Shown here: piece by piece, positions 49,297 through 62,390 of the stretch | Layout of the letters: the number at the start of each line of letters is the position of its first letter | Numbering within the stretch: position 1 is the first letter of the stretch | DNA from: an uncultured Methylomirabilota bacterium | GTDB lineage: Bacteria; Methylomirabilota; Methylomirabilia; Methylomirabilales; 2-02-FULL-66-22 | Length of the DNA: 64,000 nt | Assembly: GCA_963845565.1 (NCBI GenBank) | Contig: CAWJSJ010000005.1 | Coordinates: forward strand, 736,001-800,000 | Reading direction: 5' to 3' | Program-made: the position numbers and the translations under genes | Notes under the pieces: generated by a model | What the model was told of the DNA's origin: nothing | Seen by the model: only the letters and a program-made list of their open reading frames with translations | The model's database searches: none

Positions 49297-50748
49297 TCAC
49301 GACCACGCTCGCCTGCAATCCTCGAGGACCTCGTATCTCCAGGCCGATCCGCTGAGATACCCAAGCAGCGCCGCGTACGCCACGCAGGCCCCGGCCAGGC
49401 CAAGCCCGAGATTGGCGGAGGTGTCTGCCCACCACTGCGACCCCACGAAGAAGACCAGGGCGCTCAGGCTCGCTGCTGCGAGCGGCGCCCGAATCGCGGA
49501 CACCAGCTTGAGCTGCCAGGGGCGCAACACAACACACGCCGCTCCGGCCATGATGATCGATGCGAGGAAGCTGGCGGCAGCAAACCCCACGAACCCGACC
49601 AGGGCGACCAGGGCGGTGGCGAGCGCCCACACCGCGGTGGCCCACAGGAGATTCAAATAGAGCACGGTCTTCGCCTGCCCCAAGCCGTAGAGGCCCTGCA
49701 GCAGGAGGTTCACGGGTCCGCCGACGACCGCGGTGAGGCAAAACAAGCGGACGGCAGGAACGGAGGGAAGCCAGGCGCTGCCATAGAGGGCCGGAATCAC
49801 GCGGTCCGCGCTCACCAGCAGCAGCAAGGCTGCCGGAAAGAGGATCGCAGCCACGCGATTGAGCGCGCGCTCCAGCGCGCGCGCGAATGCCTCCGGATTC
49901 TGTTGCAGGGCCGAGAGCGCCGGAAACAGCACCCGACCGGCCACCGCGATCACCTGAAGCGGCATGAACGCCACGCTGGCCGCCCAATTCAGGAACCCCG
50001 CGGCCGCCACACCGCTCCAGGACACGACCAGCGTCGGGACGACGGAATCTCGGGCGGCAATGACCAGCGCGCTTCCCTGAAACGACGCGCCGAACCGCAG
50101 GAGGGGCGCGAGGTCGCGCCATCTCCACCGCAGCGCGGGCCGCCACCGGGTTGCGAGGAGCAAGGCGCTCAGCCCAAGGCAGCGACCCGCCACCGCCCCG
50201 ACCACGAAGCTCCACACGCCGGCGCCTGCCACGGCAAGCGCGACCGCGACCGCGAAATAGGTCACGGTCTCGATGGTCTCCGACGCCATGAGAGGCAGAT
50301 ACGACAACTCGCGCTCCAGCATCACGGCGGAGGGAGTGCGGAGTGCCGCCAAAGGCAGCACGAGGCTGAGTGTGCGGAGCGGGCCAATGGCGTCGGCAGG
50401 GAGATGCAGCCAGCGGGTGAGCGTCGGCGCCAACGCAACCAAGGCCGCCCCCAGCACCACGGCCAGGGCCAGCTGGGCCGTAAAAGCAACCTGCAGCGGC
50501 ATCGCGGTTGCCGATGCCGGGCGCTGAACCAGGGCCGCCCCCACACCGAGGTCCCCGCACGTCGAGGCCAGGGCAACGACAAACCCGACGACGGCATACA
50601 CGCCAAACGTTTCGGGCGTCAGATAACGCGCCAGGAGGATGCCGCCCCCGGCGGTGATCAACAGGCTGCAGGCCCGCTGACCGGCGACCAGCAGGAACCC
50701 TCGCAGGGTTCGGGCGCGAATGTCTTGATGAACAGCGATGGCCAGCAA
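49297..50748 (-). CDS. wzx: Oligosaccharide flippase
   Basis: LARYLTPETFG, DLG..AALVQ, polytopic membrane protein. Confidence 0.88.
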   Translation of the reverse strand: MLAIAVHQDIRARTLRGFLLVAGQRACSLLITAGGGILLARYLTPETFGVYAVVGFVVALASTCGDLGVGAALVQRPASATAMPLQVAFTAQLALAVVLGAALVALAPTLTRWLHLPADAIGPLRTLSLVLPLAALRTPSAVMLERELSYLPLMASETIETVTYFAVAVALAVAGAGVWSFVVGAVAGRCLGLSALLLATRWRPALRWRWRDLAPLLRFGASFQGSALVIAARDSVVPTLVVSWSGVAAAGFLNWAASVAFMPLQVIAVAGRVLFPALSALQQNPEAFARALERALNRVAAILFPAALLLLVSADRVIPALYGSAWLPSVPAVRLFCLTAVVGGPVNLLLQGLYGLGQAKTVLYLNLLWATAVWALATALVALVGFVGFAAASFLASIIMAGAACVVLRPWQLKLVSAIRAPLAAASLSALVFFVGSQWWADTSANLGLGLAGACVAYAALLGYLSGSAWRYEVLEDCRRAWS

Positions 50749-50751
50749 CTC

Positions 50752-52155
50752 CTATGCGGGGCGACCCGCCGACCGCGGTGTCTCCTGCAAGAGCGGCAGG
50801 GTGGCGATGATCCCGGTCAGGAACCAGAACGGCTCCATGATGCGTACGATGATGAAGGTGTTGGCCCCGATCCCGTGCGCCAGTAGCGCGACGACGCCGG
50901 CGAGGTACCCCAGCGTCAGCGCGTGAAACCGGGTGCCGCGGGACTGACGGTAGGCATCCCACCCCATCCGAAGAATCCGCCACAACAGCCACAGAAACGC
51001 GGCGAGTCCCGCCAGGCCCGTCTCGACGAGCACACGAACGTACTGGGCATCCATGAAGGCGAAGCCCGCGGCGCCGTACCCGAAGACCGGGCGCCGGCTC
51101 CATCCCTCGACTCCCTGCTTCCAGCTGTCCAGGCGCGCGCTGGTGGAGGTGTCCAGCCGGGTGTCCCCGACCCGATACTCGCCGCGATCCGCCTTGTCGT
51201 GCAGGGTGTAGTTATATCGCTCCACGACCTGTTTCGGAAAGACGAGCGGGCCGGCCAGGACCACCACCCCCACGCCGACGAGGAGGATCAGGCGTCGCGG
51301 GCTCAGCAGGATGAGGGTGGCCAGCATGGGGAGGGTGGCCAGCCAGGACGTGCGGGACAGGGTGTACAGCAGCGGAACCGCCGCCAGACCGGCAAACGCG
51401 AACCAGAGGAGCTGACCCGGAAGCGACCGGGCCGCGAGCGCGTGCGCGAGGACGAGGGCCAGCATCAGCACCAGGTAGCCGCCGAAGGTGTTGGGCTCGC
51501 CGAATTTTCCTTCGAAGGGGGCCGCCACCCGTTCGCCGGAGGGGATCTGGGCGATGCCCATGGCGGCGGAGACGGCGCAGGTGACCAGGGCGGTGGCCAG
51601 CAATCGGCGCAGCGCCCGCTCATCCCGGGTGTAGTTCACGGCCATGAAGTACACGACAAAGTATTCCAGGTACTTGAGGACGAAGAAGAACCCCCGCGCC
51701 GGGCGCACGTTGCCGACGAAGACGCCCAGGAGCGTGGCCACGACCAGCGCGACGCTGTAGGCGAGGATGGGAGCGTTGAGCGGCGTGCGGCGAACCAGTC
51801 CCAGTTCTTTGAAGAGGGCCGTCCTGGCGACCCACGCCAGGGCGACGGTGGTGAGGATCAGGTCCTCCACCCGGAGGACCAGCACGTCCCCCTTGGCCTC
51901 CGGTTTCCCGATGGAGATTCCGCCCACGCTCCCCAGGACGATTTCCGGGGACAGCAGCATGGACAGCAGGATGATGTGCAGGGCGAGTTCGGTGTGCAGA
52001 ACGCTGACGAACAGCAGAACCACCAGGAGGCTGGCGCCCAGGCTGAGGCCCGGCCCCGTCTGGGCGATGATCAGACCCCCGCCGGCAGCCAAGAGCAGCA
52101 CGAACAGCGCCAGGGGGAGCGGGCCTGCCGACGTGTCGCGCGGGTGTGCCGCCAT
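50752..52155 (-). CDS. O-antigen ligase / Wzy polymerase family protein
   Basis: EPNTFGGY, TLSR, R..SW...PVFGYG; many TM helices. Confidence 0.85.
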   Translation of the reverse strand: MAAHPRDTSAGPLPLALFVLLLAAGGGLIIAQTGPGLSLGASLLVVLLFVSVLHTELALHIILLSMLLSPEIVLGSVGGISIGKPEAKGDVLVLRVEDLILTTVALAWVARTALFKELGLVRRTPLNAPILAYSVALVVATLLGVFVGNVRPARGFFFVLKYLEYFVVYFMAVNYTRDERALRRLLATALVTCAVSAAMGIAQIPSGERVAAPFEGKFGEPNTFGGYLVLMLALVLAHALAARSLPGQLLWFAFAGLAAVPLLYTLSRTSWLATLPMLATLILLSPRRLILLVGVGVVVLAGPLVFPKQVVERYNYTLHDKADRGEYRVGDTRLDTSTSARLDSWKQGVEGWSRRPVFGYGAAGFAFMDAQYVRVLVETGLAGLAAFLWLLWRILRMGWDAYRQSRGTRFHALTLGYLAGVVALLAHGIGANTFIIVRIMEPFWFLTGIIATLPLLQETPRSAGRPA

Positions 52156-52292
52156 GCTGGTCCTCGCCTACCTGCGGCTATCCCGGTACCGGCGGACGGG
52201 GCGGAGATGGACGCGGCCACGCTGTGAGGCCCGAGGAGAGGCCTCCATCGCCGGCGTGGTCGGCGCCGCCCGCCGCACGACGAGGCCCGGCG

Positions 52293-54551
52293 TCACGAAA
52301 AGAGCCCTCGAATCCTTCCACGCAGGGACGCGGGACGGGACGGCGGCTCGGCCCGCTCGGCTCGCCCGGGTTCGTGGCCGTAGGCATACCGGTAGTACTG
52401 CAGCTCTTCGTAGTCCGGACTGGTCTCGGCCTTGAGACCCGTCAGGACGACACCCAGGACCCGACCGCGCACGTTTTCAAGCAGCACCTTGGCGCGCTTC
52501 AGCGCCGACCGCGCAATCTTCCCCACCCGATACACCATCAGGGTCCCGTCCGTTTTCGAGGCCAGGATCGCCGCGTCGGTGACCGGGAGGATGGGGGGGC
52601 AGTCGAAGATGACAAAGTCGAACTGCTCCCGGAACTGGGCAATCAGATCCTGCATGCGCTGGGAGTTGAGGAACTCGGAGGGATTGGGCGGCGGCGTGCC
52701 GCTCGACAGCAAGAAGAGTTTGTCCACGTTGGGCATCGTCATCAGTTTCTCGACCCCCAGCGGCCCCAGCATGAGATCGGTCGCGGTCCGCAGGCACTCC
52801 CGCCAGTCCTTGTTCCCGACGATGACCTCGGTGAGTCCGGGATCTCGCGGGATCCCGAAGGCGTGATGCAGGAACGGCTTGCGCAGGTCGGCCTCGACCA
52901 GGAGCGTGCGCTTGCCCATCTGTGCGATGGTGATCGCCAGGTTGATGGCGGTCGTCGTCTTGCCTTCCATGAGGGACGCGCTTGTCACGCAGAGCGTCTT
53001 GACGCTCTTCTCGAGGGAGAGAAACTCCACGTTGGTTCGGAGCGAGCGATAGGCCTCGGCCACCGTGGACCGCGGGCTGAGGAGGGACACCAGAAACGGA
53101 CGCATGGTGCCGAGAGGCCCGCCTTCCTCCTCGTCCTCCGGCGGGGCGAGCAAGGGGTCCCGGACCGGGTCGATCAGCGGGATCAGGCCGAGCACCGGGG
53201 TCTCCAGATAGCTCTCGACGTCCTGGATGGTTCCGATGGAGGTATCCAGCGATTCCAGAACAAAGGCCAAGACCAGCCCCACCGTGAGGCCGATCAGCAG
53301 ACCGGCGAATACCTTCCCGGCGGTCTGCGCGGGATTCATGGGACTCCCCGGGACCGTGGCCGGCCGGACCAGGCTCACCTCCTCCACCTGCTCTCGCTCC
53401 TTGATCTGCACCTCTTGGAGCTTCGACCGCAAGGTCGAGAGGAGATTCTCATTCTGGGTGAGCTCGCGCTGGAGTTGCGCATACTGTCGGGTCAAATCCG
53501 GCAGGGCGCGCTGTTCCTGCCGGACGCGCTGGATCTGCCGCTGCACATCGCCGGCGCGTTCCTCAAGAATCTGGTTCTTGATCCGGAGCTCACGGAGGAG
53601 GGCCTCCCGCGCGGTCCGGACGCGCGCCTCCAGGCTCTCCCGGATGCTGGCCATGCGCGCATCCAGGTCGCGGATCTGGGGGTGTTGCGGTGTGAGGGTG
53701 ACCAGGAGATTCTCCCGCTCCAGGCTCAAGTCCACCAGTGCGCCGCTCAGCTTGCCGATGCCGGGGTCCCCAGCCTCGGCGAGCAGACGCGCGGGGAGGG
53801 CGCCTGCCGCAGCCGCTTGCTGCACGGTCTGGATCTGGCCGGCGATCTCGTCCTGCTCTCGTCGGATCTTTTCGGCCTCGCCTTCCAGGACGCCGAGGCG
53901 CGCCACGGAGGCGGTGGTCTCTTCGGTGAGGGAGACGAAGCCGCGGGTCTCCTTCAGCGTCCGAATGCTATCCTCCGCCTGCCGGACGCGAACGCCCACC
54001 TCGCGGGTTTGCTCCTCGATGAAGCGCCGAGCCTCCAGGATCTTCCGGTTGCGGAGCGCCGCGTTCTCCGCTTGGTAGGCCTGCGCCACGGCGTTGGCGA
54101 CCCGGGCGGCCTGCGCCGGCTCCCGCGAGGCGACCGTGACGTTGATCAGCGTGGTGTTCTCTTCCGGGGTCGCCGTGACCTGGTTGCGCAGTTCGCCGAG
54201 GAGCTGCACGTGCACGGGATCCTGTTTGATGGCCTCGGAATCGAGCGTCGCCGGGATCAGGCGCAGCGCCTTGGCCGCCCGCTCGAGGACGGGGAAGCTC
54301 CGAATCACGGCTGCCTGGGTGGCCGGCGCATCGCCCTGGGAGAGCGAGATCGTCTCCACCAGCAGACCGACGAGCGTCGTGGTCCGCTCGAACTTGACCA
54401 CCGCGGTCGCCTGGTAGAGCGGATCGGGTCGCTGCACCTCGGCGAACAGCAGGGCCAGCAGCCCGAAGGCGGCGGTGACCAGCGCCACGCTCCACAGCCG
54501 CTTTCGCAGGATCCGCCAGTAGTCGCGAAGATTCAGATCGTACTGTGGCAT
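52293..54551 (-). CDS. wzc: Polysaccharide co-polymerase / tyrosine autokinase
   Basis: LRDYWRIL, EAYRSLRTN, EGKTT Walker A, DCPP, Tyr-rich tail. Confidence 0.92.
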   Translation of the reverse strand: MPQYDLNLRDYWRILRKRLWSVALVTAAFGLLALLFAEVQRPDPLYQATAVVKFERTTTLVGLLVETISLSQGDAPATQAAVIRSFPVLERAAKALRLIPATLDSEAIKQDPVHVQLLGELRNQVTATPEENTTLINVTVASREPAQAARVANAVAQAYQAENAALRNRKILEARRFIEEQTREVGVRVRQAEDSIRTLKETRGFVSLTEETTASVARLGVLEGEAEKIRREQDEIAGQIQTVQQAAAAGALPARLLAEAGDPGIGKLSGALVDLSLERENLLVTLTPQHPQIRDLDARMASIRESLEARVRTAREALLRELRIKNQILEERAGDVQRQIQRVRQEQRALPDLTRQYAQLQRELTQNENLLSTLRSKLQEVQIKEREQVEEVSLVRPATVPGSPMNPAQTAGKVFAGLLIGLTVGLVLAFVLESLDTSIGTIQDVESYLETPVLGLIPLIDPVRDPLLAPPEDEEEGGPLGTMRPFLVSLLSPRSTVAEAYRSLRTNVEFLSLEKSVKTLCVTSASLMEGKTTTAINLAITIAQMGKRTLLVEADLRKPFLHHAFGIPRDPGLTEVIVGNKDWRECLRTATDLMLGPLGVEKLMTMPNVDKLFLLSSGTPPPNPSEFLNSQRMQDLIAQFREQFDFVIFDCPPILPVTDAAILASKTDGTLMVYRVGKIARSALKRAKVLLENVRGRVLGVVLTGLKAETSPDYEELQYYRYAYGHEPGRAERAEPPSRPASLRGRIRGLFS

Positions 54552-54568
54552 GCGATCGCCTCGCCTCT

Positions 54569-55666
54569 CTAGAAGCTCGCGATAGCCTTGATCGAGAGGA
54601 CCGTGTACAGCGGTTGGTTGATGAGATCGAACGTCGGACGGATCTGGGCGACGAAGGCGTTCCAATTCGCAATCGGCGTCCGCGGGACAAAGACCACGTC
54701 GTTCGGCTTTAGATACTGGTCGATGCGCTTCTCGCCCTCGAGAAGCAGACGACGCAGATCCACCGTGAGGATCTCGGTGACCCCGTCTGCCGAACGGATG
54801 ATCGCCGCCTGATCGAAGAGCGCCGCATCCGTCCAACCGCCGACCTGCGCGACAAGGTGAGCCAGCGTGAGATTGGGGACATAGGGCGCGGGGCCGGGTG
54901 TCTTGACTTCTCCCAGCAGGAAGACCCGCCGCTCTTCGCCCTTGACCTGCTCCGGGACGAAGATGGCGTCGCCGGCGTCCAGGACGAACTCCTGGGACAC
55001 GTCGCCGTCCTGGAGGAAGCGAAACACGTTGACCGTGTACGTCTTGCCGGAGGCCCGGCTGATCCGCACGCGGTCCAGGCTGGCGTTCTGCTGAAAGCCG
55101 CCGGCCTTGGCAATGGCTTCCATCAGGGTCACGCGCCCGGTCAGGGGGATGGTGCTGGCCGAGGCCTTGGCCTGGGTGCCCACCGCGCCGAACACCGTCA
55201 CCTTCTTGCTATGGTACTCCTTGACCAGGACGTCGACCGTTGGCGCGCGAAAGAAAACGGACAGATCCTCGGCGATGGCTCGGCCGGCTTCGTCCGTCGT
55301 CAAGCCGTCCACCTTGGTCTCGGCCAGAATGACCCTGACCGTTCCGCCGGCGCGGACCGCGGTCTGAATCTTCTCCTGCGTCGGGCCGCGGCTGACGGTG
55401 ATCTCCAGGACGTCGCCGGGCCCGAGGCGGTACTGCGGCACACCTGCGCTGGTGACGAAGGCCCGGTTCTCCGTGACGGGCGGCGGGAGTTCCGTGGATG
55501 CGTCGGTAGGGGCCGGGGCGGCCGCCACCCGGGGCTGGGGGAACGTCGGCGCGTTCACGGAAGTTGACCGCGACGGTTTCTCCAGGCCCCCGCAGCCGGC
55601 CAGTGCCAGAGACAGGAGGACTGCGCTGGCAACATACGATGTTGGTTTCACCGGTCTACCTCCCAC
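54569..55666 (-). CDS. wza: Polysaccharide export lipoprotein with SLBB domains
   Basis: LAGC lipobox, YRLGPGDVL, EAIAKAGG, DVVFVP. Confidence 0.88.
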   Translation of the reverse strand: MGGRPVKPTSYVASAVLLSLALAGCGGLEKPSRSTSVNAPTFPQPRVAAAPAPTDASTELPPPVTENRAFVTSAGVPQYRLGPGDVLEITVSRGPTQEKIQTAVRAGGTVRVILAETKVDGLTTDEAGRAIAEDLSVFFRAPTVDVLVKEYHSKKVTVFGAVGTQAKASASTIPLTGRVTLMEAIAKAGGFQQNASLDRVRISRASGKTYTVNVFRFLQDGDVSQEFVLDAGDAIFVPEQVKGEERRVFLLGEVKTPGPAPYVPNLTLAHLVAQVGGWTDAALFDQAAIIRSADGVTEILTVDLRRLLLEGEKRIDQYLKPNDVVFVPRTPIANWNAFVAQIRPTFDLINQPLYTVLSIKAIASF

Positions 55667-55764: not shown

Positions 55765-56895
55765 TCATCCGGCATCTTCTTTGTCTGCCGCCCGTGTTGG
55801 TTCTGTATGCCCCAAGGCGAGTCGCGCCATCTGTCGCCAGTGGGTCATCCATGCGTGACGAGCGGGGCATCCCCCGTCCGAAAACCCCGTGGCGAACACC
55901 CTGCCCGCTGGGAAAAGGAGTTGCCGCGCGAACGCGGCCCTGGCCGGCCATCCGGGGAGACAGGCGAACGTCAGGCCGTAGCGAAGATGTCCGGCTCCCT
56001 CTCCGCGTCCGGTCTGCGCCAGGATGCGGCGCTCCCCGGGGAAGAGGTACTGCGGCCGGAGCGCCGCGCGAGTCTCCGGCACCGGATCCACTCCCAGAAC
56101 TGCGAGGCGGTCGAGGCAATACCACACGCTCCGGCGCACCCCGGCCGGACTGCGGAGGCACGCCGGGGGCGACGGCGGCCACGCCTGCAGGGCCGCCAGG
56201 AAATCGGCCATCCACCGGACTCCCTGCATGCCGTGGTGGTGCACCGCATGAACCGCGAGATACTGGAGATAGTCCTGGGGACCCAGCGTCCAGGCTGGGG
56301 CCCCTGCCAGCGTCAGGGGCTGTCGGCGTCGCCAGATTGTTTCGAAGGCTTGAGGCCACAGGGCGCCGCGTGCGGGCAGCCGCGTGGTGTTGAGGAGGCC
56401 GGTGTGGAGATCGATGCTGTGGGTGAGGTCGGGGGCGAAGAAGTCCTCTTCTCCTCGGAGGTCGTTCCGATACCCCAAGCGGCGCAGCACGTCCCCGAAT
56501 CGCGGGCCGTCGGCCGGGGCGACCAGAAGGTCCACATCGTCCAGCGGGCGAGGGATCCCCGCCGGGTAGACCAGGCGTTGCAGTGCCGGACCCTTGAGCA
56601 GCAGAATCGGGATCCCCTCGCCGGAGGCGGCCTCAATCGCCAAGGCGGCGGCCCGCTCCAGGCGCACGGATCGCGCCCCGCTCGCCAGGGTCGCCCGGCG
56701 CAGCGCCTCCAACACGGCGGGCGGGACCGCACGGGCCGCCGCGGTTTGCAGCCCGGCATAGAGGAGCGGTGCGACGCGCCAGCGACGCGACGCCGTCAGG
56801 ACCTCCGGCCACACCACGGGTGAGCGGAGGCGCTCCGCCAGCCTGCCCGCGAACTCTGTGCGACGCAGGCCGACCAGCGTTCCGTACCAGAGCAC
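55765..56895 (-). CDS. Nucleotidyltransferase family protein (NTP_transf_5-like); start uncertain
   Basis: LLKGPAL...RPLDDVDLLV, IDLH, HAVHH. Confidence 0.8.
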   Translation of the reverse strand: MLWYGTLVGLRRTEFAGRLAERLRSPVVWPEVLTASRRWRVAPLLYAGLQTAAARAVPPAVLEALRRATLASGARSVRLERAAALAIEAASGEGIPILLLKGPALQRLVYPAGIPRPLDDVDLLVAPADGPRFGDVLRRLGYRNDLRGEEDFFAPDLTHSIDLHTGLLNTTRLPARGALWPQAFETIWRRRQPLTLAGAPAWTLGPQDYLQYLAVHAVHHHGMQGVRWMADFLAALQAWPPSPPACLRSPAGVRRSVWYCLDRLAVLGVDPVPETRAALRPQYLFPGERRILAQTGRGEGAGHLRYGLTFACLPGWPARAAFARQLLFPAGRVFATGFSDGGCPARHAWMTHWRQMARLALGHTEPTRAADKEDAG

Positions 56896-56913
56896 CGATC
56901 CGCCAGTTTGGTT

Positions 56914-56942
56914 TTGACTTCCCCACAGGCGCGGGCTATGTT
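56914..56942 (+). promoter_or_regulatory. Sigma70-type promoter for the PqqD gene (probably leaderless transcript)
   Basis: TTGACT-N17-TATGTT ends 8 nt before ATG 56951; no RBS. Confidence 0.6.
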
Positions 56943-56950
56943 GACTGGCC

Positions 56951-57286
56951 ATGGCACACGCGTCCGACAGCAACCGCTATCAACGTACCGACGAGTTCGT
57001 CGCCAGGACCATTGCCGGCGAGACGGTGCTGGTTCCGATCCACCGGCAGATCGGGGACCTTGAATCCATCTACACACTGAACGAGGTGGCCACGTTCATC
57101 TGGGAGCGACTGGCGGCCGCCGCCACGCCGGCCGCCCTCGCCCTCGCTGTCGAGGACACCTTTGCCGGCAGCCCGGCGGAGATACGTGCGGACCTCGAAG
57201 AATTTCTGGGCCACCTGCTCGACCTCCGTGCAATCCGATCCGTTGCGGATACGTCCGATGGTTTGGACGTCACCCCTCCGCGCTGA
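56951..57286 (+). CDS. PqqD family protein / RiPP recognition element
   Basis: VARTIAGETVLVP...IYTLNEVATFIWERL...DLEEFL. Confidence 0.88.
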   Translation: MAHASDSNRYQRTDEFVARTIAGETVLVPIHRQIGDLESIYTLNEVATFIWERLAAAATPAALALAVEDTFAGSPAEIRADLEEFLGHLLDLRAIRSVADTSDGLDVTPPR

Positions 57287-57295
57287 TCCCCGCCC

Positions 57296-58171
57296 TCACG
57301 CCTTTCCAAGTTGAGCCTGGACCCAGTCCACCTCACGGCCGTCGGCCGGAACGGTGAGCCATCCGCACGGCACCTCGCGGCAGATCCGCCCAAGCGTCTC
57401 CAGGGTGTTTCCCATCCGTTCCGCATCCCATACCGCAGGGAACGATTTGGCGAACACGAGCGCGGTCGCCGTTGCCGGGCGAAGCGGTTCGAACGCCACG
57501 TCGGTTCCCTGGCGCAGTAGGTAGACTGCCCGGACCGGCGCCGCGTCTCCGCCGACCTCCGGATTCTCGCCGAACCACGGGGTCGGGTGCATGCGAAGGC
57601 CCTCCGGGCTCGCCTCCAAGACGACCCGGTCGTCATTCAGGATCGTGGCGCCCGCGGCGCGCCAGAGGCGAGCCGCCGTGCTCTTGCCCGCCCCGGACGA
57701 TCCGACAAACAGGACGCCGGCGCCGTGCCAGTGCACGCCGCAGGCGTGGACCAGGAGTGCGTCATGCTCGGCCAAGAGGTGGCGGAAGAGCAAGTCCTCC
57801 AGGGGGTACTCCAGCGGGTATCTGGACGACGGATCGGGGACGCGCTTTGGGTCCATCACGAGGCACCCCGTGGTGCCGGATGCGTCCAGTCGGAGTGCCC
57901 GGTCCGCGCGGCCGGTCGTCGCATCCTCTCCGACGCGGATCGTCCATCGGCCATCGTCCCGATAAAAGCTCGCCACACCGCCGGCTCGGAACACCGGCGG
58001 CGCCGAGCGGCGTCCGGTGGAGTCCCACACCATCTGCAGGGTCAGATCGGAATCCGCTGCTGGCGCGAAGAATTTCGGGTGTCCGGCGTCGAGCTGCCAC
58101 CGCCCAGGATCCATCTCCCCATGGAGCGAAACGCACACGGGGCCGATCCGGAGGGTGAATCGATTAGGCAT
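57296..58171 (-). CDS. HprK-related P-loop kinase
   Basis: LVHACGV, GSSGAGKST Walker A, LNDDR, TPW. Confidence 0.78.
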   Translation of the reverse strand: MPNRFTLRIGPVCVSLHGEMDPGRWQLDAGHPKFFAPAADSDLTLQMVWDSTGRRSAPPVFRAGGVASFYRDDGRWTIRVGEDATTGRADRALRLDASGTTGCLVMDPKRVPDPSSRYPLEYPLEDLLFRHLLAEHDALLVHACGVHWHGAGVLFVGSSGAGKSTAARLWRAAGATILNDDRVVLEASPEGLRMHPTPWFGENPEVGGDAAPVRAVYLLRQGTDVAFEPLRPATATALVFAKSFPAVWDAERMGNTLETLGRICREVPCGWLTVPADGREVDWVQAQLGKA

Positions 58172-58319
58172 GGTTTGTCCGGGAGCCGGGAAAGCAGAGC
58201 ATGCGCGCACTGGCGGGTAGCACGCGGTCGACGGTCGGGTTGCCGGAGACATGCCTCGCCGCGCCAGCATTCACCAGCAACCTACTTTCGTCCGGCCGCT
58301 GCCGCCGAAGGTTGTTCGC

Positions 58320-58505
58320 TCAGGAGCCCCTGTTGTCCCTGCATTTTGCAACGCTCCGGATATCGCACGGGTTTGGGAACGTCAGGTTCTTTCCGCCTCC
58401 ATTGCTTCGCTTGCAATTGGGGACCGCGGCCGTTTCCTCGCCGGCGAGGTCGATTCGTTCGAGGGAGGGTTTCACATAGTCGCGTTTCGTCGAGTCCACG
58501 GTCAT
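58320..58505 (-). CDS. Putative RiPP precursor peptide 1 (61 aa)
   Basis: MTVDSTKRDYVKPSLERIDLAGEETAAVPNCKRSNGGGKNLTFPNPCDIRSVAKCRDNRGS; YxxPxL leader motif; paralog of peptide 2. Confidence 0.85.
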   Translation of the reverse strand: MTVDSTKRDYVKPSLERIDLAGEETAAVPNCKRSNGGGKNLTFPNPCDIRSVAKCRDNRGS

Positions 58506-58562: not shown

Positions 58563-58650
58563 TCACGACCCCAGCGATTCCCTGGAAAGTACGCCAAGCA
58601 CGCTCCAGAATAATGCATCGCGGCCAACTCGATCTCTGCCCAGGCTGCGG
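58563..58650 (-). pseudogene. Decayed third precursor copy
   Basis: RDALFWSVLGVLSRESLGS* aligns without gaps to RIEWWWDIFGVRCRESRGS*. Confidence 0.55.
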
Positions 58651-58672: not shown

Positions 58673-58873
58673 TTAAGATCCCCTTGACTCGCGGCACCGG
58701 ACGCCGAAGATATCCCACCACCACTCGATCCGACACGGGTTGGGATAGGTCTGGCTTCTTCCCCCGCCGGTGTCCCGCTTGCAGTTGGGGACGGCGGCGG
58801 TCTCCTCGCCGACCAGTGTGATCCGCTCGATCGTCGGCTTTCGGTAGGGGAGTCTGGGCTGCGTTGGGTTCAT
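58673..58873 (-). CDS. Putative RiPP precursor peptide 2 (66 aa)
   Basis: MNPTQPRLPYRKPTIERITLVGEETAAVPNCKRDTGGGRSQTYPNPCRIEWWWDIFGVRCRESRGS; ATGA overlap with the rSAM stop. Confidence 0.85.
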   Translation of the reverse strand: MNPTQPRLPYRKPTIERITLVGEETAAVPNCKRDTGGGRSQTYPNPCRIEWWWDIFGVRCRESRGS

Positions 58874-60005
58874 CGAGCTGCCGCCTTCCCTGTCCAATCC
58901 CGGGGCTCGCGCGGGGGGCCGAACGCCCCAGCGCGGAGTTTGGCGAGGTCACACAGGAACGGCACTCGGGTTTCGGGGTCTCCAGACTCCAGCACGGCCC
59001 ATCCCGCGCACTGGTCGCAGGCGGAGTGCAGATCGCAGGTGTCGCAAGGCATGGTCTTGGTCCGCGCCTGCCGACGCATGGCGGGGAAATGCTCGTCCCA
59101 CCCCTCCCGGAACGTCCCCTGGCGCAAGTCGTACGCCGGCTCACGAAGCAGCATGCAGGGGACGAGGCGCCCGTACGGATCGATGTGGAACGAGTGAAGG
59201 TACGCACCGCAGGTGATCAGGTCGGCCCGTGCCTCGACCCGGGAGGCTTTCGCGAACTCCAACCGATACGCGGCCGCCCGCTTCTCCTCGGCGCGCTTCC
59301 AGGGCCAGCACTTGCTGAGGCGAAAGCCGCACGCCTGCCGGCCCGGCCGCGCCGTCCAGGCGGCAGTTCACCAGCGGGTCCCACTGGAACTCCAACCCGT
59401 ATCCGGCCGCCAGGGCGCGCAGGCCGTCCAGGTCGTCATGGTTCAGTGTGGTCGGCACGGTCTTCAGTCGCAGACGGACCCGGCGGTCGAGGAGCAACTC
59501 GATGCCGCGGAGACACCGCCGGAATGAACCGGGGACACCCGTCACACGCTCGTACACTTCGGGGGTGCTCCCGTAGATCGATACCTCGACCACCAGGGGC
59601 GGCCATTCCGCCAAGAGGTCGGCGAGACGAGGGGTGACGGCGGTGCCATTGGTGAAGAGCGTGACCAGTAGTCCGCGCCGCTTCATGTGGAGATAGATCT
59701 CGCGGATGTCGGACCGGAGCAGCGGTTCGCCGCCCGTGAGAAGCATCCAGAGACATCCGCGATCCACCACCTCGTCCGTGAGCCGGCGAATCTCGGCGGC
59801 GGTGAGCTCGTGCCGTTGCAGCGCCGCGATCGCCGCCGGATTCGTTCACGAAACAGTGGGCGCAGCGGAGGTTACAGCGGAACGTGACCTCGAGGCTGCC
59901 GTCCAGAGGGATCCGATCCGCCGAGACGCGGGCGCCGATCCGACCGGCGAACGCCGAGTAGGAGAGGTGCGGGACGGATTGACAGGCGGTCTCTGTGGCA
60001 TGCAC
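58870..60005 (-). CDS. Radical SAM/SPASM domain peptide maturase (two frameshifts, near 59820 and 59295)
   Basis: CNLRCAHC, LTGGEPLL, FTNG; SPASM CGA..IDPYG.LVPC..CDTCDLHSACDQC..C. Confidence 0.88.
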
Positions 60006-60062
60006 TGCCTCGGGGGCGACCTCCGAACGGCGCCCCCCGGACCCGGAACGACTTCGTCGTCC

Positions 60063-60125
60063 GCCGCTGTCAAAGAATAACTTGGCGGAGATTTCGGTAA
60101 CGGCGTTAAGAGCCGTACAAAATTA
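60063..60125. repeat. Diverged family B repeat upstream of the rSAM gene
   Basis: GCCGCTGTCAAAGAATAACTTGGCGGAGATTTCGGTAACGGC-gt-TAAGAGCCGTA. Confidence 0.65.
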
Positions 60126-60151
60126 CAAAAATGGACAAGTCATCGTACGCC

Positions 60152-61174
60152 CTAGCTCGGATTCCTCCCCGAGAACGCCTCTGTAATGTAGAGCAGCGTG
60201 TTGGCGGACAGATCCACCCGACGGCGTGGCTCGAGGGCTTCGCCTTTCGGCCCGATGGCGATCTCGACCACCGGCCGAAGGGGAAAGGTCGGGTTGGTGG
60301 CCACGATCCGCGCGATCTCGGTGGAGTTGAGGCGCACGTAGCTGCCCACCGGGAAGGCGGACAGACCGCGGATGAGCCCTTTGAGCGCGCGGTCGGGGAA
60401 CTTCGCCCGCCCGGATGTCATGAGCTCCTTGATCACCTCGAAGGGTCCCCGGCGGCTGCGATAGGGGCGGGTGTGTGTGAGGGCCTCGTAGGCGTCTGCC
60501 AAACCGATGATCTTCGCGTACTCGTGAATCTCCTGCCCCATCAGGCCGCGAGGGTAGCCGCTGCCGTCTTCGCGTTCGTGCTCCTGCAGGACGACGTTGG
60601 CCAGCCACTCGAACTCCGCGCCCAGGCCGTGCAGGATCCGAAACCCTTTCTCGGGATGCCGACGCACCAGGGCGGTCTCTTCCTCGGTGAGCGCCTCCGG
60701 TTTGTCGAGGATCCGATTCGGGACGATGACCATGCCGACATCGTGCAGGCAGGCGGCAAGACCCAGCCACGGCAATTCCTCGGGGCGACAGCCCGCCCCC
60801 TGCCCGATCTTGATGGCGAAGACGCCGGTGTTGACCATGTGACGCGCCAGATCGTAGCGCCCCTCACCATCTTCCAGGGCCTGGACGAGCAGCGCGTCAT
60901 CGGTCGCGATGGCCTCCACCATCCCGGCCGCCACGCGCTGGAGTGTGCCGATCCGGAAGGGAGTCCCTGCGGCCGCAGCCTCCATGGCACGCGCCACCTC
61001 TTGCAGCGCCAGCGGGTAGTGGAGCGGATCGGGTTGGGCGGCGGGTTGGGGCGCAGGCGGAATAGCCGGCGCCGCCTGGGCGGACCCCGCCGCGGCGACA
61101 GAAAACGACGCCTCGGGAGTGGGGTCGCGATGGTCCGATGCCGATTTGCGGACGAGATCGCTTAAGCGAACGAT
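60152..61174 (-). CDS. HD-GYP domain protein (probable start ATC at 61174; first canonical start 60997)
   Basis: LHDVG, HPEKG, HEREDGSGYP, DAYEAL...RPYR; AGAAGGAGG RBS before an in-frame ATC. Confidence 0.85.
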   Translation of the reverse strand: MVRLSDLVRKSASDHRDPTPEASFSVAAAGSAQAAPAIPPAPQPAAQPDPLHYPLALQEVARAMEAAAAGTPFRIGTLQRVAAGMVEAIATDDALLVQALEDGEGRYDLARHMVNTGVFAIKIGQGAGCRPEELPWLGLAACLHDVGMVIVPNRILDKPEALTEEETALVRRHPEKGFRILHGLGAEFEWLANVVLQEHEREDGSGYPRGLMGQEIHEYAKIIGLADAYEALTHTRPYRSRRGPFEVIKELMTSGRAKFPDRALKGLIRGLSAFPVGSYVRLNSTEIARIVATNPTFPLRPVVEIAIGPKGEALEPRRRVDLSANTLLYITEAFSGRNPS

Positions 61175-61286
61175 GGCGCGCCCTCCTTCTCCGGTTATGC
61201 AGCCATCCGAATCGATCTCTGTGCCGGCAACACCGTGTGCGTCGCTGTCGCTGCGCCCCGGCCGGCGCGGCGTGTCCGGGTGCGGT

Positions 61287-62093
61287 CTATCGAGTCTCCC
61301 CGAGGCCGTTGAGGACCCGCTTCACCAACGGGGCATCCACGATTTTAGCGGCGTGGACGGACCCTTCGAGGAGGCACAGATCGCATAGTGTGTTGAGGCG
61401 GCGCGGCACGCCGCCGGCGTGCTCCCAGACGAGGCGGATCGCCTCGTCGTCAAACAGGGACTGGGCGGCGCCCGCCCGCTCCATGCGGAAGGCGACGTAG
61501 GCGGCCGCCTCGGCCTGGCTGAGCGGCTTCAAATGGTGGCGAAGGGCGATCCGCTGATCCAAGGGCTTGATCCGGCCGATCATGTCGGTGATCTCCGGCT
61601 GGGCCATGAGGATCAGCGTGAGCAGGAACCGATCGTTCAACTGGAAGTTCAGCAGCATCCGGAGTTCTTCGAAGACGTCCGGGTCCCGGATGCAATGGGC
61701 CTCGTCCACCACGAGGACGGTCTCTTTCCCCTCGCGCAGATTGGCCACCAATCGGTCGTTCAGGGACCGCAGGAGCGCAACCTTGGTGGTTCCGGATGGG
61801 GTGATGCCGAATTGAAGATCGATCTCCTCGAGAAAATCGAGGCTGGGAAGCGACGGGTTCGTCACGAGGCCGACGTCATACTTTTCCTGGGCCAACTGGA
61901 GAATGAAGGTCCGACTCAGGGTCGTCTTGCCGCACCCGACATCGCCGACCAACAAGGCGGCGCCCTTGTTGTGCTGCACCGCGTACATCAGTCGGGCCAA
62001 GCCTTCGCGGTGCTGCGCCGACAGGAAGAAGAAGTTGGGATCAGGGACGTTCTGAAACGGCGCGGTGGCCAGTCTCCAGTATCCCTCGTACAT
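61287..62093 (-). CDS. ExeA/GspA-like AAA ATPase
   Basis: MYEGYW..PFQNVPDP, GDVGCGKT, VVDEAH, GGVPRRLNTLCD. Confidence 0.88.
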   Translation of the reverse strand: MYEGYWRLATAPFQNVPDPNFFFLSAQHREGLARLMYAVQHNKGAALLVGDVGCGKTTLSRTFILQLAQEKYDVGLVTNPSLPSLDFLEEIDLQFGITPSGTTKVALLRSLNDRLVANLREGKETVLVVDEAHCIRDPDVFEELRMLLNFQLNDRFLLTLILMAQPEITDMIGRIKPLDQRIALRHHLKPLSQAEAAAYVAFRMERAGAAQSLFDDEAIRLVWEHAGGVPRRLNTLCDLCLLEGSVHAAKIVDAPLVKRVLNGLGETR

Positions 62094-62390
62094 CCCACGG
62101 TCCTCGCTTGGCTCGATGCCGCCGATTGCCGGGAATTCACCCATTATGAAAACGGGCACACCACAACGCCGCCTCCCCTGGAGGCCCGTGGCTGCCCCGA
62201 CTCGGAGGGCACCCTATCATACGGCCCAAAGGAATCAAGCGAAAATTTTCGCGTGGGAGCAACGTGATACCGTCCCGCACCGGCCGAATGGCCCCCGGAC
62301 CGAACGCCACGACGTGCCTGGGGCCGGAAGTCTCTTCGGGGCGCCGCCGGCCCGCCAGGAGGAAAAATCCGCTCGGCGTCCATTTTTTTC

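Follow-up and report, generated by a model that had tools for sequence, protein, structure and literature searches.

A recurring radical SAM peptide cassette in Methylomirabilota with a candidate kinase-nucleotidyltransferase tailoring step at the C-terminal serine

We analyzed a 64,000-nucleotide window from an uncultured Methylomirabilota bacterium (GCA_963845565.1, contig CAWJSJ010000005.1, positions 736,001 to 800,000) which carries a peptide-modification cassette composed of a radical S-adenosylmethionine (rSAM)/SPASM maturase, two Cys-containing precursor peptides (P1 and P2), a kinase of the HPrK/PEPCK fold, a PqqD-type protein and a nucleotidyltransferase-fold protein of family PF14907. 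The cassette is real, widespread and recurring across the phylum, and uncharacterized. It is not a lasso peptide cluster. Based on its gene content and conserved residues, we favor the reading, which we hold to be fairly probable, that the kinase phosphorylates the C-terminal Ser of the precursors and that the nucleotidyltransferase-fold enzyme then caps this phosphate with a nucleotide or a sugar. A description of the cassette was not found in the open literature searched; supplements of genome-mining studies on rSAM enzymes or on recognition elements (RREs) for peptides that are made by the ribosome and modified after translation (RiPPs) could already list such clusters.

Precursor P1 (58673..58873, minus strand, 66 amino acids) has a YxxPxI leader and three Cys, is 82% identical to its copy in the related genome G009 and ends in RESRGS. 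P2 (58320..58505, minus strand, 61 amino acids) has a YxxPxL leader and three Cys and ends in RDNRGS. On the same strand, at about 58563..58620, lies a P1-type 3' end that terminates in SRESLGS and, judged by eye, is much like the 3' end of the G009 P1 gene in its DNA. As this remnant lacks a leader and an in-frame Met and has its last Cys replaced by Ser, it is a decayed copy, and its ending does not count as evidence of selection. Reading of the three C-termini, each directly followed by a stop codon, confirmed the initial annotation of the window, according to which both precursors and the remnant end in Gly-Ser. When P2 was searched against protein databases, 39 matches were obtained, P2 itself among them. 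In an alignment of 40 close homologues (P1 and P2 included), all 40 have the terminal Gly and Ser, with variable residues before them. The refuting observation named in the initial annotation, a terminal Ser that is not conserved among homologous precursors, was thus not made. A precursor profile search gave 21 matches, 18 of which were examined, leaving out one that was already known and two proteins of more than 1,500 amino acids. Thirteen of these 18 distant matches end in Ser, two in Thr and three in Gln, Arg or Val. A lone weak Actinomycetota match to P2 from a scan of a genome collection (L021) was rejected because none of the cassette genes is present there.

The same C-terminal residue emerged from a survey in which the C-terminus played no part in the selection. 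At E<=1e-12 a kinase profile matched 100 of the phylum's 251 genomes, with a strong match in 62 of the 251. The survey covered 85 loci, of which 75 are regions of genomes and 10 come from metagenomes. Small open reading frames (ORFs) were chosen by a 28-residue leader window alone, which picked 68 from 496 candidates. In the 57 loci with a strong kinase match, all 59 picked precursors end in Ser (55) or Thr (4) and all contain 2-4 Cys, the first of which lies 18-21 residues past the leader Tyr in every case. Four loci with a kinase of a different clade yielded nine picked precursors with 0-1 Cys, none of which ends in Ser or Thr, and a B2-type protease is present in all three of these four loci that were scanned. 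As background, 61 of 428 other small ORFs with a YxxP motif end in Ser or Thr. The cores of the 59 precursors form 23 clusters at 50% identity, 20 ending in Ser and three in Thr, and the terminal hydroxyl residue is the sole position besides Cys and leader that is kept across them. It is encoded by TCC (24), TCG (22), TCA (5), TCT (2), AGT (2), ACC (3) or ACG (1). The 57 loci, many of which end at contig ends, contain genes for an rSAM protein (55), PqqD (51), the nucleotidyltransferase (45), an S24/S26 peptidase (43), Wzc (8) and an AsnB- or cyclase-like protein (0).

The initial annotation had placed the peptides on a non-lasso rSAM scaffold, and this was borne out. The B2 leader protease PF13471 was found in none of five genomes, that of the window included (98.7% complete; control positive in 2 of 14), an AsnB-like gene, as a macrolactam cyclase would require, in none of the 57 loci, and rSAM genes are present in 55 of them. 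An unusual lasso cluster with its protease and cyclase encoded elsewhere, or a locus decaying in this strain, is an explanation that has been largely refuted and that we regard as very improbable. It could draw on the YxxPxL leader and the PqqD-type RRE, traits that the cassette does share with lasso clusters, on an asparagine-synthase-family gene 17 kb downstream, and on the frameshifted rSAM gene, the inverted PqqD gene and the precursor remnant. However, the downstream gene scores as an ordinary asparagine synthase (491 against a cut-off of 267) and falls below the lasso cyclase cut-off (NF033535; 263 against 525). Moreover, core positions 7-9 of P2 hold no Asp or Glu, unlike what lasso peptides require, and only 12 of the 59 cores contain either residue after the first Cys.

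The apparent decay of the rSAM gene (58870..60005, minus strand) also has another probable cause. The gene, recognized by Pfam Radical_SAM and SPASM pieces, is split over three frames with breaks near 59822-59825 and 59290-59293, and a further one-base difference lies at 59997, near its start. The three tblastn segments are 70-73% identical to the intact gene of genome G004, and the gene is also whole in G010. Because independent short-read contigs from three studies (X1, X3 and X4) are one base shorter near both breaks, the frameshifts are probably consensus errors of the assembly. As it stands in this assembly, the broken frame still counts against a working cassette. Many further genes at 1-50000 of the window appear split or frameshifted, which fits an indel-prone long-read assembly.

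The kinase gene lies at 57296..58270 on the minus strand, with a likelier start at 58171. Numbered from that start, the catalytic motif His142-Lys163-Asp180-Asp181 is intact; the corresponding His-Lys-Asp-Asp motif is described as essential in lasso-peptide kinases (PMC9266682, PMC10368454). The protein gives weak Hpr_kinase_C and HprK-related matches, PF27840 spans nearly all of its homologues, and its structural model (predicted local distance difference test score 89) matches PEPCK and HPrK. It scores 21 bits against a cut-off of 240 for true HPr kinase (TIGR00679), and a separate HprK-like gene in the same genome (C1) reaches 235 bits. When scored against cut-offs, no curated NCBIfam family fitted the kinase or the rSAM protein. 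Close kinase homologues bear NC10/Methylomirabilota names.

A careful tree of 27 hand-picked rows, which leaves out four long-branch rows, places 15 cassette kinases together on a branch (100/99) and six of the seven lasso-cluster kinases on another (88/88). The latter includes the paeninodin-family cluster kinase from Priestia, which represents PadeK in the tree. A quick tree of 61 of 94 rows likewise separates cassette from lasso-cluster kinases, and the two groups are mostly alignable only in a short stretch around the P-loop. Grouping with lasso-cluster kinases, as the label of lasso-type kinase tailoring would lead one to expect, was thus not observed. The label holds as an analogy, given the intact His-Lys-Asp-Asp motif and the conserved terminal Ser or Thr, and fails as a statement of descent. 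The cassette kinase likely works like PadeK without descending from lasso kinases, and by these motifs and this conservation it probably phosphorylates the terminal Ser or Thr of the precursor. The agrocin 84 plasmid encodes a distant member of the kinase superfamily, agnE1 (L126:4977-5900), which has the His, P-loop and Asp-Asp motif.

Several observations speak against terminal phosphorylation. The 40 close homologues also keep a Ser or Thr at one internal position, and three of the 18 distant precursors end in Gln, Arg or Val; these three match over only the first 39-50 positions and are probably frameshifted. Twenty-three kinase loci gave no picked precursor, of which five later yielded one, all ending in Ser. 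The genomes surveyed are kin from one phylum, so that the counts overstate independence. A long-branch Butyrivibrio kinase falls inside the cassette clade in the quick tree and its neighboring peptide ends in Trp; L099 may be a second such case. In several kinase-bearing lasso clusters that were examined the precursors end in Cys, Arg or Gly. A prediction of the kinase-precursor complex scored 0.02 and was not used as evidence.

Under an alternative explanation, it is the rSAM enzyme that needs the terminal Ser or Thr, for example for oxidative decarboxylation or a C-terminal cross-link, and the kinase acts on an internal Ser or Thr or on a small molecule. The intact G004 rSAM protein scores best with MftC (103 bits) and AhbD (101 bits), which are decarboxylating enzymes, MftC acting on the C-terminal Tyr of its peptide. 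The cores are rich in Ser and Thr, and the distant relative agnE1 belongs to the agrocin 84 small-molecule pathway. There is also a precedent in BsfK, reported to phosphorylate Ser3, an internal residue of a lasso core whose last residue is Asp (PMC10368454). Yet both rSAM scores are far under the cut-offs of 265 and 500, the rSAM genes vary in subtype and in number (one to four per locus) where the kinase and the terminal Ser or Thr are constant, and no internal Ser or Thr position is common to all 23 core clusters. We therefore consider this explanation improbable.

The nucleotidyltransferase-fold protein is encoded at 55765..56952 on the minus strand, with an upstream TTG start at 56973. 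It belongs to PF14907 (NTP_transf_5; E 1.4e-39) and has an intact KG...DxD motif (DxD at D139/D141). The best structural match of its model was ANT(2'')-Ia (4xje; Z 12.8, root-mean-square deviation (rmsd) 3.6, 160 aligned), nearly tied with MenT1 (Z 12.7) and 5uvd (Z 12.2). The glycan phosphotransferase FKRP was matched weakly (Z 8.3, rmsd 3.6, 140 aligned). A PDB sequence search with its profile gave no match, Foldseek with its model none at E<=0.001, and a plasmid search with the protein of the window none either. PsmN from the pseudomycoidin cluster requires D134/D136 of its DxD motif and resembles the ANT(2'') entries 4xje and 5cfs (PMC6993621). Compared with this published description, the protein of the window is PsmN-like in family, motif and modeled fold. 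It is 25-28% identical to four lasso-cluster nucleotidyltransferases, and a quick tree (38 rows) mixes the nucleotidyltransferases of lasso clusters with those of the cassette, with one sister pair supported at 99 in the Shimodaira-Hasegawa-like approximate likelihood ratio test.

Whether this enzyme acts on the phosphopeptide, adding a nucleotide or sugar cap to the phosphate, is on our assessment an even call. PF14907 is present in 61 of the 62 genomes with a strong kinase match versus 91 of the 189 others. Within the genus, Wzc is 60-80% identical and one type of ExeA-HD-Wza-Wzc locus holds different cassette subtypes, between which kinase and nucleotidyltransferase drop together to 21-30% identity. 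On the other side stand the 12 of 57 loci in which the nucleotidyltransferase is absent, many of them cut by contig ends, and genomes G013 and G018, where its gene has kept its place between HD-GYP and Wza and the cassette sits elsewhere. In addition, the chemistry of PsmN itself is unsettled in the literature: according to PMC6993621 and PMC9266682, the hexose on the phosphoserine of pseudomycoidin could be added by PsmN or by a host enzyme. The proposal that the same two-step modification occurs on an rSAM peptide hence stands well for the kinase step, and the nucleotidyltransferase step is plausible and weaker, since the gene is present in 45 of the 57 loci and separable from the cassette.

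The separable gene could alternatively mean that only the kinase acts on the peptide, the nucleotidyltransferase serving the exopolysaccharide or another substrate, in which case the product would be phosphorylated and unglycosylated. The gene abuts wza here, and in G013 and G018 it did not move with the cassette but remained with ExeA-HD-Wza-Wzc, loci lacking it still have the terminal Ser, PF14907 also occurs in those 91 genomes without a strong match to the cassette kinase, and the weak FKRP match would suit a glycan substrate. We nevertheless judge this unlikely. In the stretches fetched, Wzc is found in only 8 of the 57 cassette loci versus 45 with the nucleotidyltransferase, the divergence of the latter tracks that of the kinase within the genus, and in G012 and G014 the nucleotidyltransferase lies with the cassette and none lies at the polysaccharide locus. 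In G005 the peptidase, the inverted PqqD gene and a nucleotidyltransferase copy remain at the polysaccharide locus. We read the nucleotidyltransferase as a module serving the phosphopeptide, yet with some tie to glycans.

In the favored sequence of phosphorylation and capping, the PqqD protein would first bind the YxxPxL leader, the rSAM/SPASM enzyme would modify the Cys-containing core, most likely with thioether cross-links, the kinase would phosphorylate the Ser or Thr at the C-terminus, the enzyme of family PF14907 would cap this phosphate with a nucleotide or sugar, and an S24/S26 peptidase encoded elsewhere in the genome would remove the leader near the first Cys. The CxxxCxxC motif and the auxiliary-cluster cysteines are present in the rSAM alignment. 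Because Cys is the sole constant core residue, thioether formation is favored among the possible rSAM reactions, although as a claim of its own it could go either way. Aromatic cross-linking as a general chemistry was rejected, since Trp, Tyr or Phe is present in only 15 of the 59 cores.

The PqqD gene (56951..57286, plus strand; PF05402, E 1.6e-13) separates the kinase gene from that of the nucleotidyltransferase and runs opposite to the operon; the ATG codons of PqqD and nucleotidyltransferase overlap (CATG). The inversion is kept in five relatives (G009, G004, G010, G018 and G005), so that sense and antisense transcription would overlap. A plus-strand promoter-like site ends 9 nt upstream of PqqD (site and gene together at 56914-57286; two sites found versus 0.4 expected). 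In G010 and G018 an S24/S26 peptidase gene lies between the kinase and the inverted PqqD gene. The cassette of the window has none, and an orphan one lies in the same genome (G000, C2:385858-386358, minus strand). G004 also has an orphan soluble S24/S26 peptidase (C33, about 35.4-35.9 kb), and in both genomes the gene adjoins an outer-membrane beta-barrel-like gene. The orphan peptidase, soluble and of the cassette type, is likely the leader protease acting in trans.

To our knowledge, C-terminal Ser phosphorylation and the PsmN step are known only from lasso peptides, and we know of no terminal kinase tailoring in sactipeptides or ranthipeptides. The latter two have Cys-containing precursors with an rSAM/SPASM maturase and an RRE, as does the cassette, for which no curated maturase family reached its cut-off. 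SynChlorMet (ScmC, ScmE, ScmF; TIGR04249-04251), itself uncharacterized, shares the HPrK-like protein and rSAM/SPASM enzymes and includes a PqqD protein. It is defined by two rSAM proteins, whereas the window has one, together with an identified precursor and a nucleotidyltransferase, and the cassette type has an S24/S26 peptidase; scores were far below cut-off (ScmC 32 versus 125; ScmE 84 and ScmF 72 versus 400). The HPr-rel-A and HprK-related kinase B families (TIGR04352, TIGR04355) contain related kinases; the kinase of the window scores 20 and 37 with them, versus a cut-off of 200. In L035, L095 and L096, PqqD and a PF14907 protein lie beside related kinases that branch separately, and neither an rSAM gene nor a precursor of the cassette type was seen in these three loci.

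Closest in tailoring are the phosphorylated lasso peptides (paeninodin PadeA/PadeK, ThcoK, SyanK), described with the same YxxPxL leader, stand-alone PqqD and HPrK-like kinase with His-Lys-Asp-Asp (PMC8498205, PMC9266682). Their kinase-cluster precursors are reported to have little in common beyond the terminal Ser (same sources), as is the case here. The cassette differs from the paeninodin type by an rSAM/SPASM enzyme and S24/S26 peptidase instead of B2 protease and cyclase, by Cys-rich cores mostly without Asp or Glu, by a separate kinase clade and by tolerance of a terminal Thr. Pseudomycoidin (psmK and psmN) has the same combination of kinase and uncharacterized ANT(2'')-like nucleotidyltransferase with DxD (PMC6993621). 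It is a phosphoglycosylated lasso peptide, whereas the cassette is non-lasso, has no ABC exporter in the locus and has a nucleotidyltransferase that can lie apart. BsfK/BsfN of Bradymonas similarly combine an HPrK-like kinase, helped by a PqqD-like protein, with a clustered nucleotidyltransferase (PMC10368454); in contrast to the internal target of BsfK, the constant residue of the cassette is terminal.

The tailoring logic therefore has precedent in lasso peptides, and what appears new is its occurrence in an rSAM-based cassette, in which a lasso-associated pair of kinase and nucleotidyltransferase is found on a different scaffold. The cassette has a clean genetic signature and suggests a RiPP class without a name, in which a protease resembling signal peptidases would remove the leader. 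It also offers many soluble substrate-enzyme pairs with which nucleotidyl-, glycosyl- and phosphodiester-transferase activity of PF14907 proteins could be told apart. Its significance is tempered in that the tailoring logic is not new in principle and that every chemical step is inferred, from observed gene content, co-occurrence, terminal hydroxyl conservation, motifs, folds and trees.

A further and rather unlikely possibility is an anchoring module, composed of kinase and nucleotidyltransferase and independent of the scaffold, which would convert the terminal Ser into a LicD/FKRP-like phosphodiester to a glycan, so that the peptide decorates the exopolysaccharide or a giant surface protein. 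An rSAM-cross-linked peptide would then be a covalent surface decoration and not a free antibiotic. The idea arises because the cassette repeatedly lies inside Wza/Wzc loci and beside ORFs of 800-2400 amino acids in 18 of the 57 loci, a dedicated exporter is rare, nucleotidyltransferases have been exchanged between lasso and non-lasso clusters, and the phosphate of pseudomycoidin reportedly carries mono- and di-hexose. A general link of the cassette to exopolysaccharide loci does not hold outside the genus. Among 101 of 139 picked neighbor ORFs (24 loci), one GT2, two polysaccharide deacetylases and one ABC ATPase were found at E<=1e-12. The long ORFs lie within 1.5 kb of the cassette (L026, L047-L049, L060, L062, L066, L073, L074, L076, L079-L081, L084, L085, L097, L098 and L041), and those with a Pfam match look extracellular (C25, IPT/TIG, DUF7948). 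Kinase-bearing lasso clusters amid polysaccharide genes (flippase, O-antigen ligase, sugar transferases, Wzc) were seen in L108, L110, L113, L115 and L092, whose hosts are an archaeon, Proteobacteria, a Firmicute and a member of the same phylum (Methylomirabilota).

In the window, the minus-strand gene order is an ExeA/XrtA-type ATPase, HD-GYP, rSAM/SPASM, P1, remnant, P2, kinase and PF14907 nucleotidyltransferase. The upstream ATPase and HD-GYP genes (60152..62159, minus strand) move with the polysaccharide locus and not with the peptide cassette. Directly downstream of the nucleotidyltransferase, on the same strand, follow wza, wzc, wzy, wzx and glycosyltransferases, the start of the exopolysaccharide cluster lying at 49297..55666. 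Contigs of two runs omit 89 bases at 60053-60143, in the stretch that separates the HD-GYP gene from the start of the rSAM gene, which is strain variation in the presumed promoter region. In RNA runs, only 5-8% of the words were present.

Related arrangements were also observed. L086-L089 hold a different cassette with a constant order of PqqD, B2-type protease, HprK-related kinase and PF14907, with an rSAM gene in two of the loci; no cyclase was seen in them, and up to five short, Cys-poor precursors have variable C-termini. In the variant represented by L028 and L029 there are four rSAM genes, of which one has DUF512, and a Ser/Thr-rich precursor with four Cys that ends in Ser. A plasmid of Bacillus thuringiensis (L114:1990-4509) carries three lasso-like precursors in tandem, which have three Cys and end in Cys, next to a kinase-like gene and a MauE/DoxX protein.

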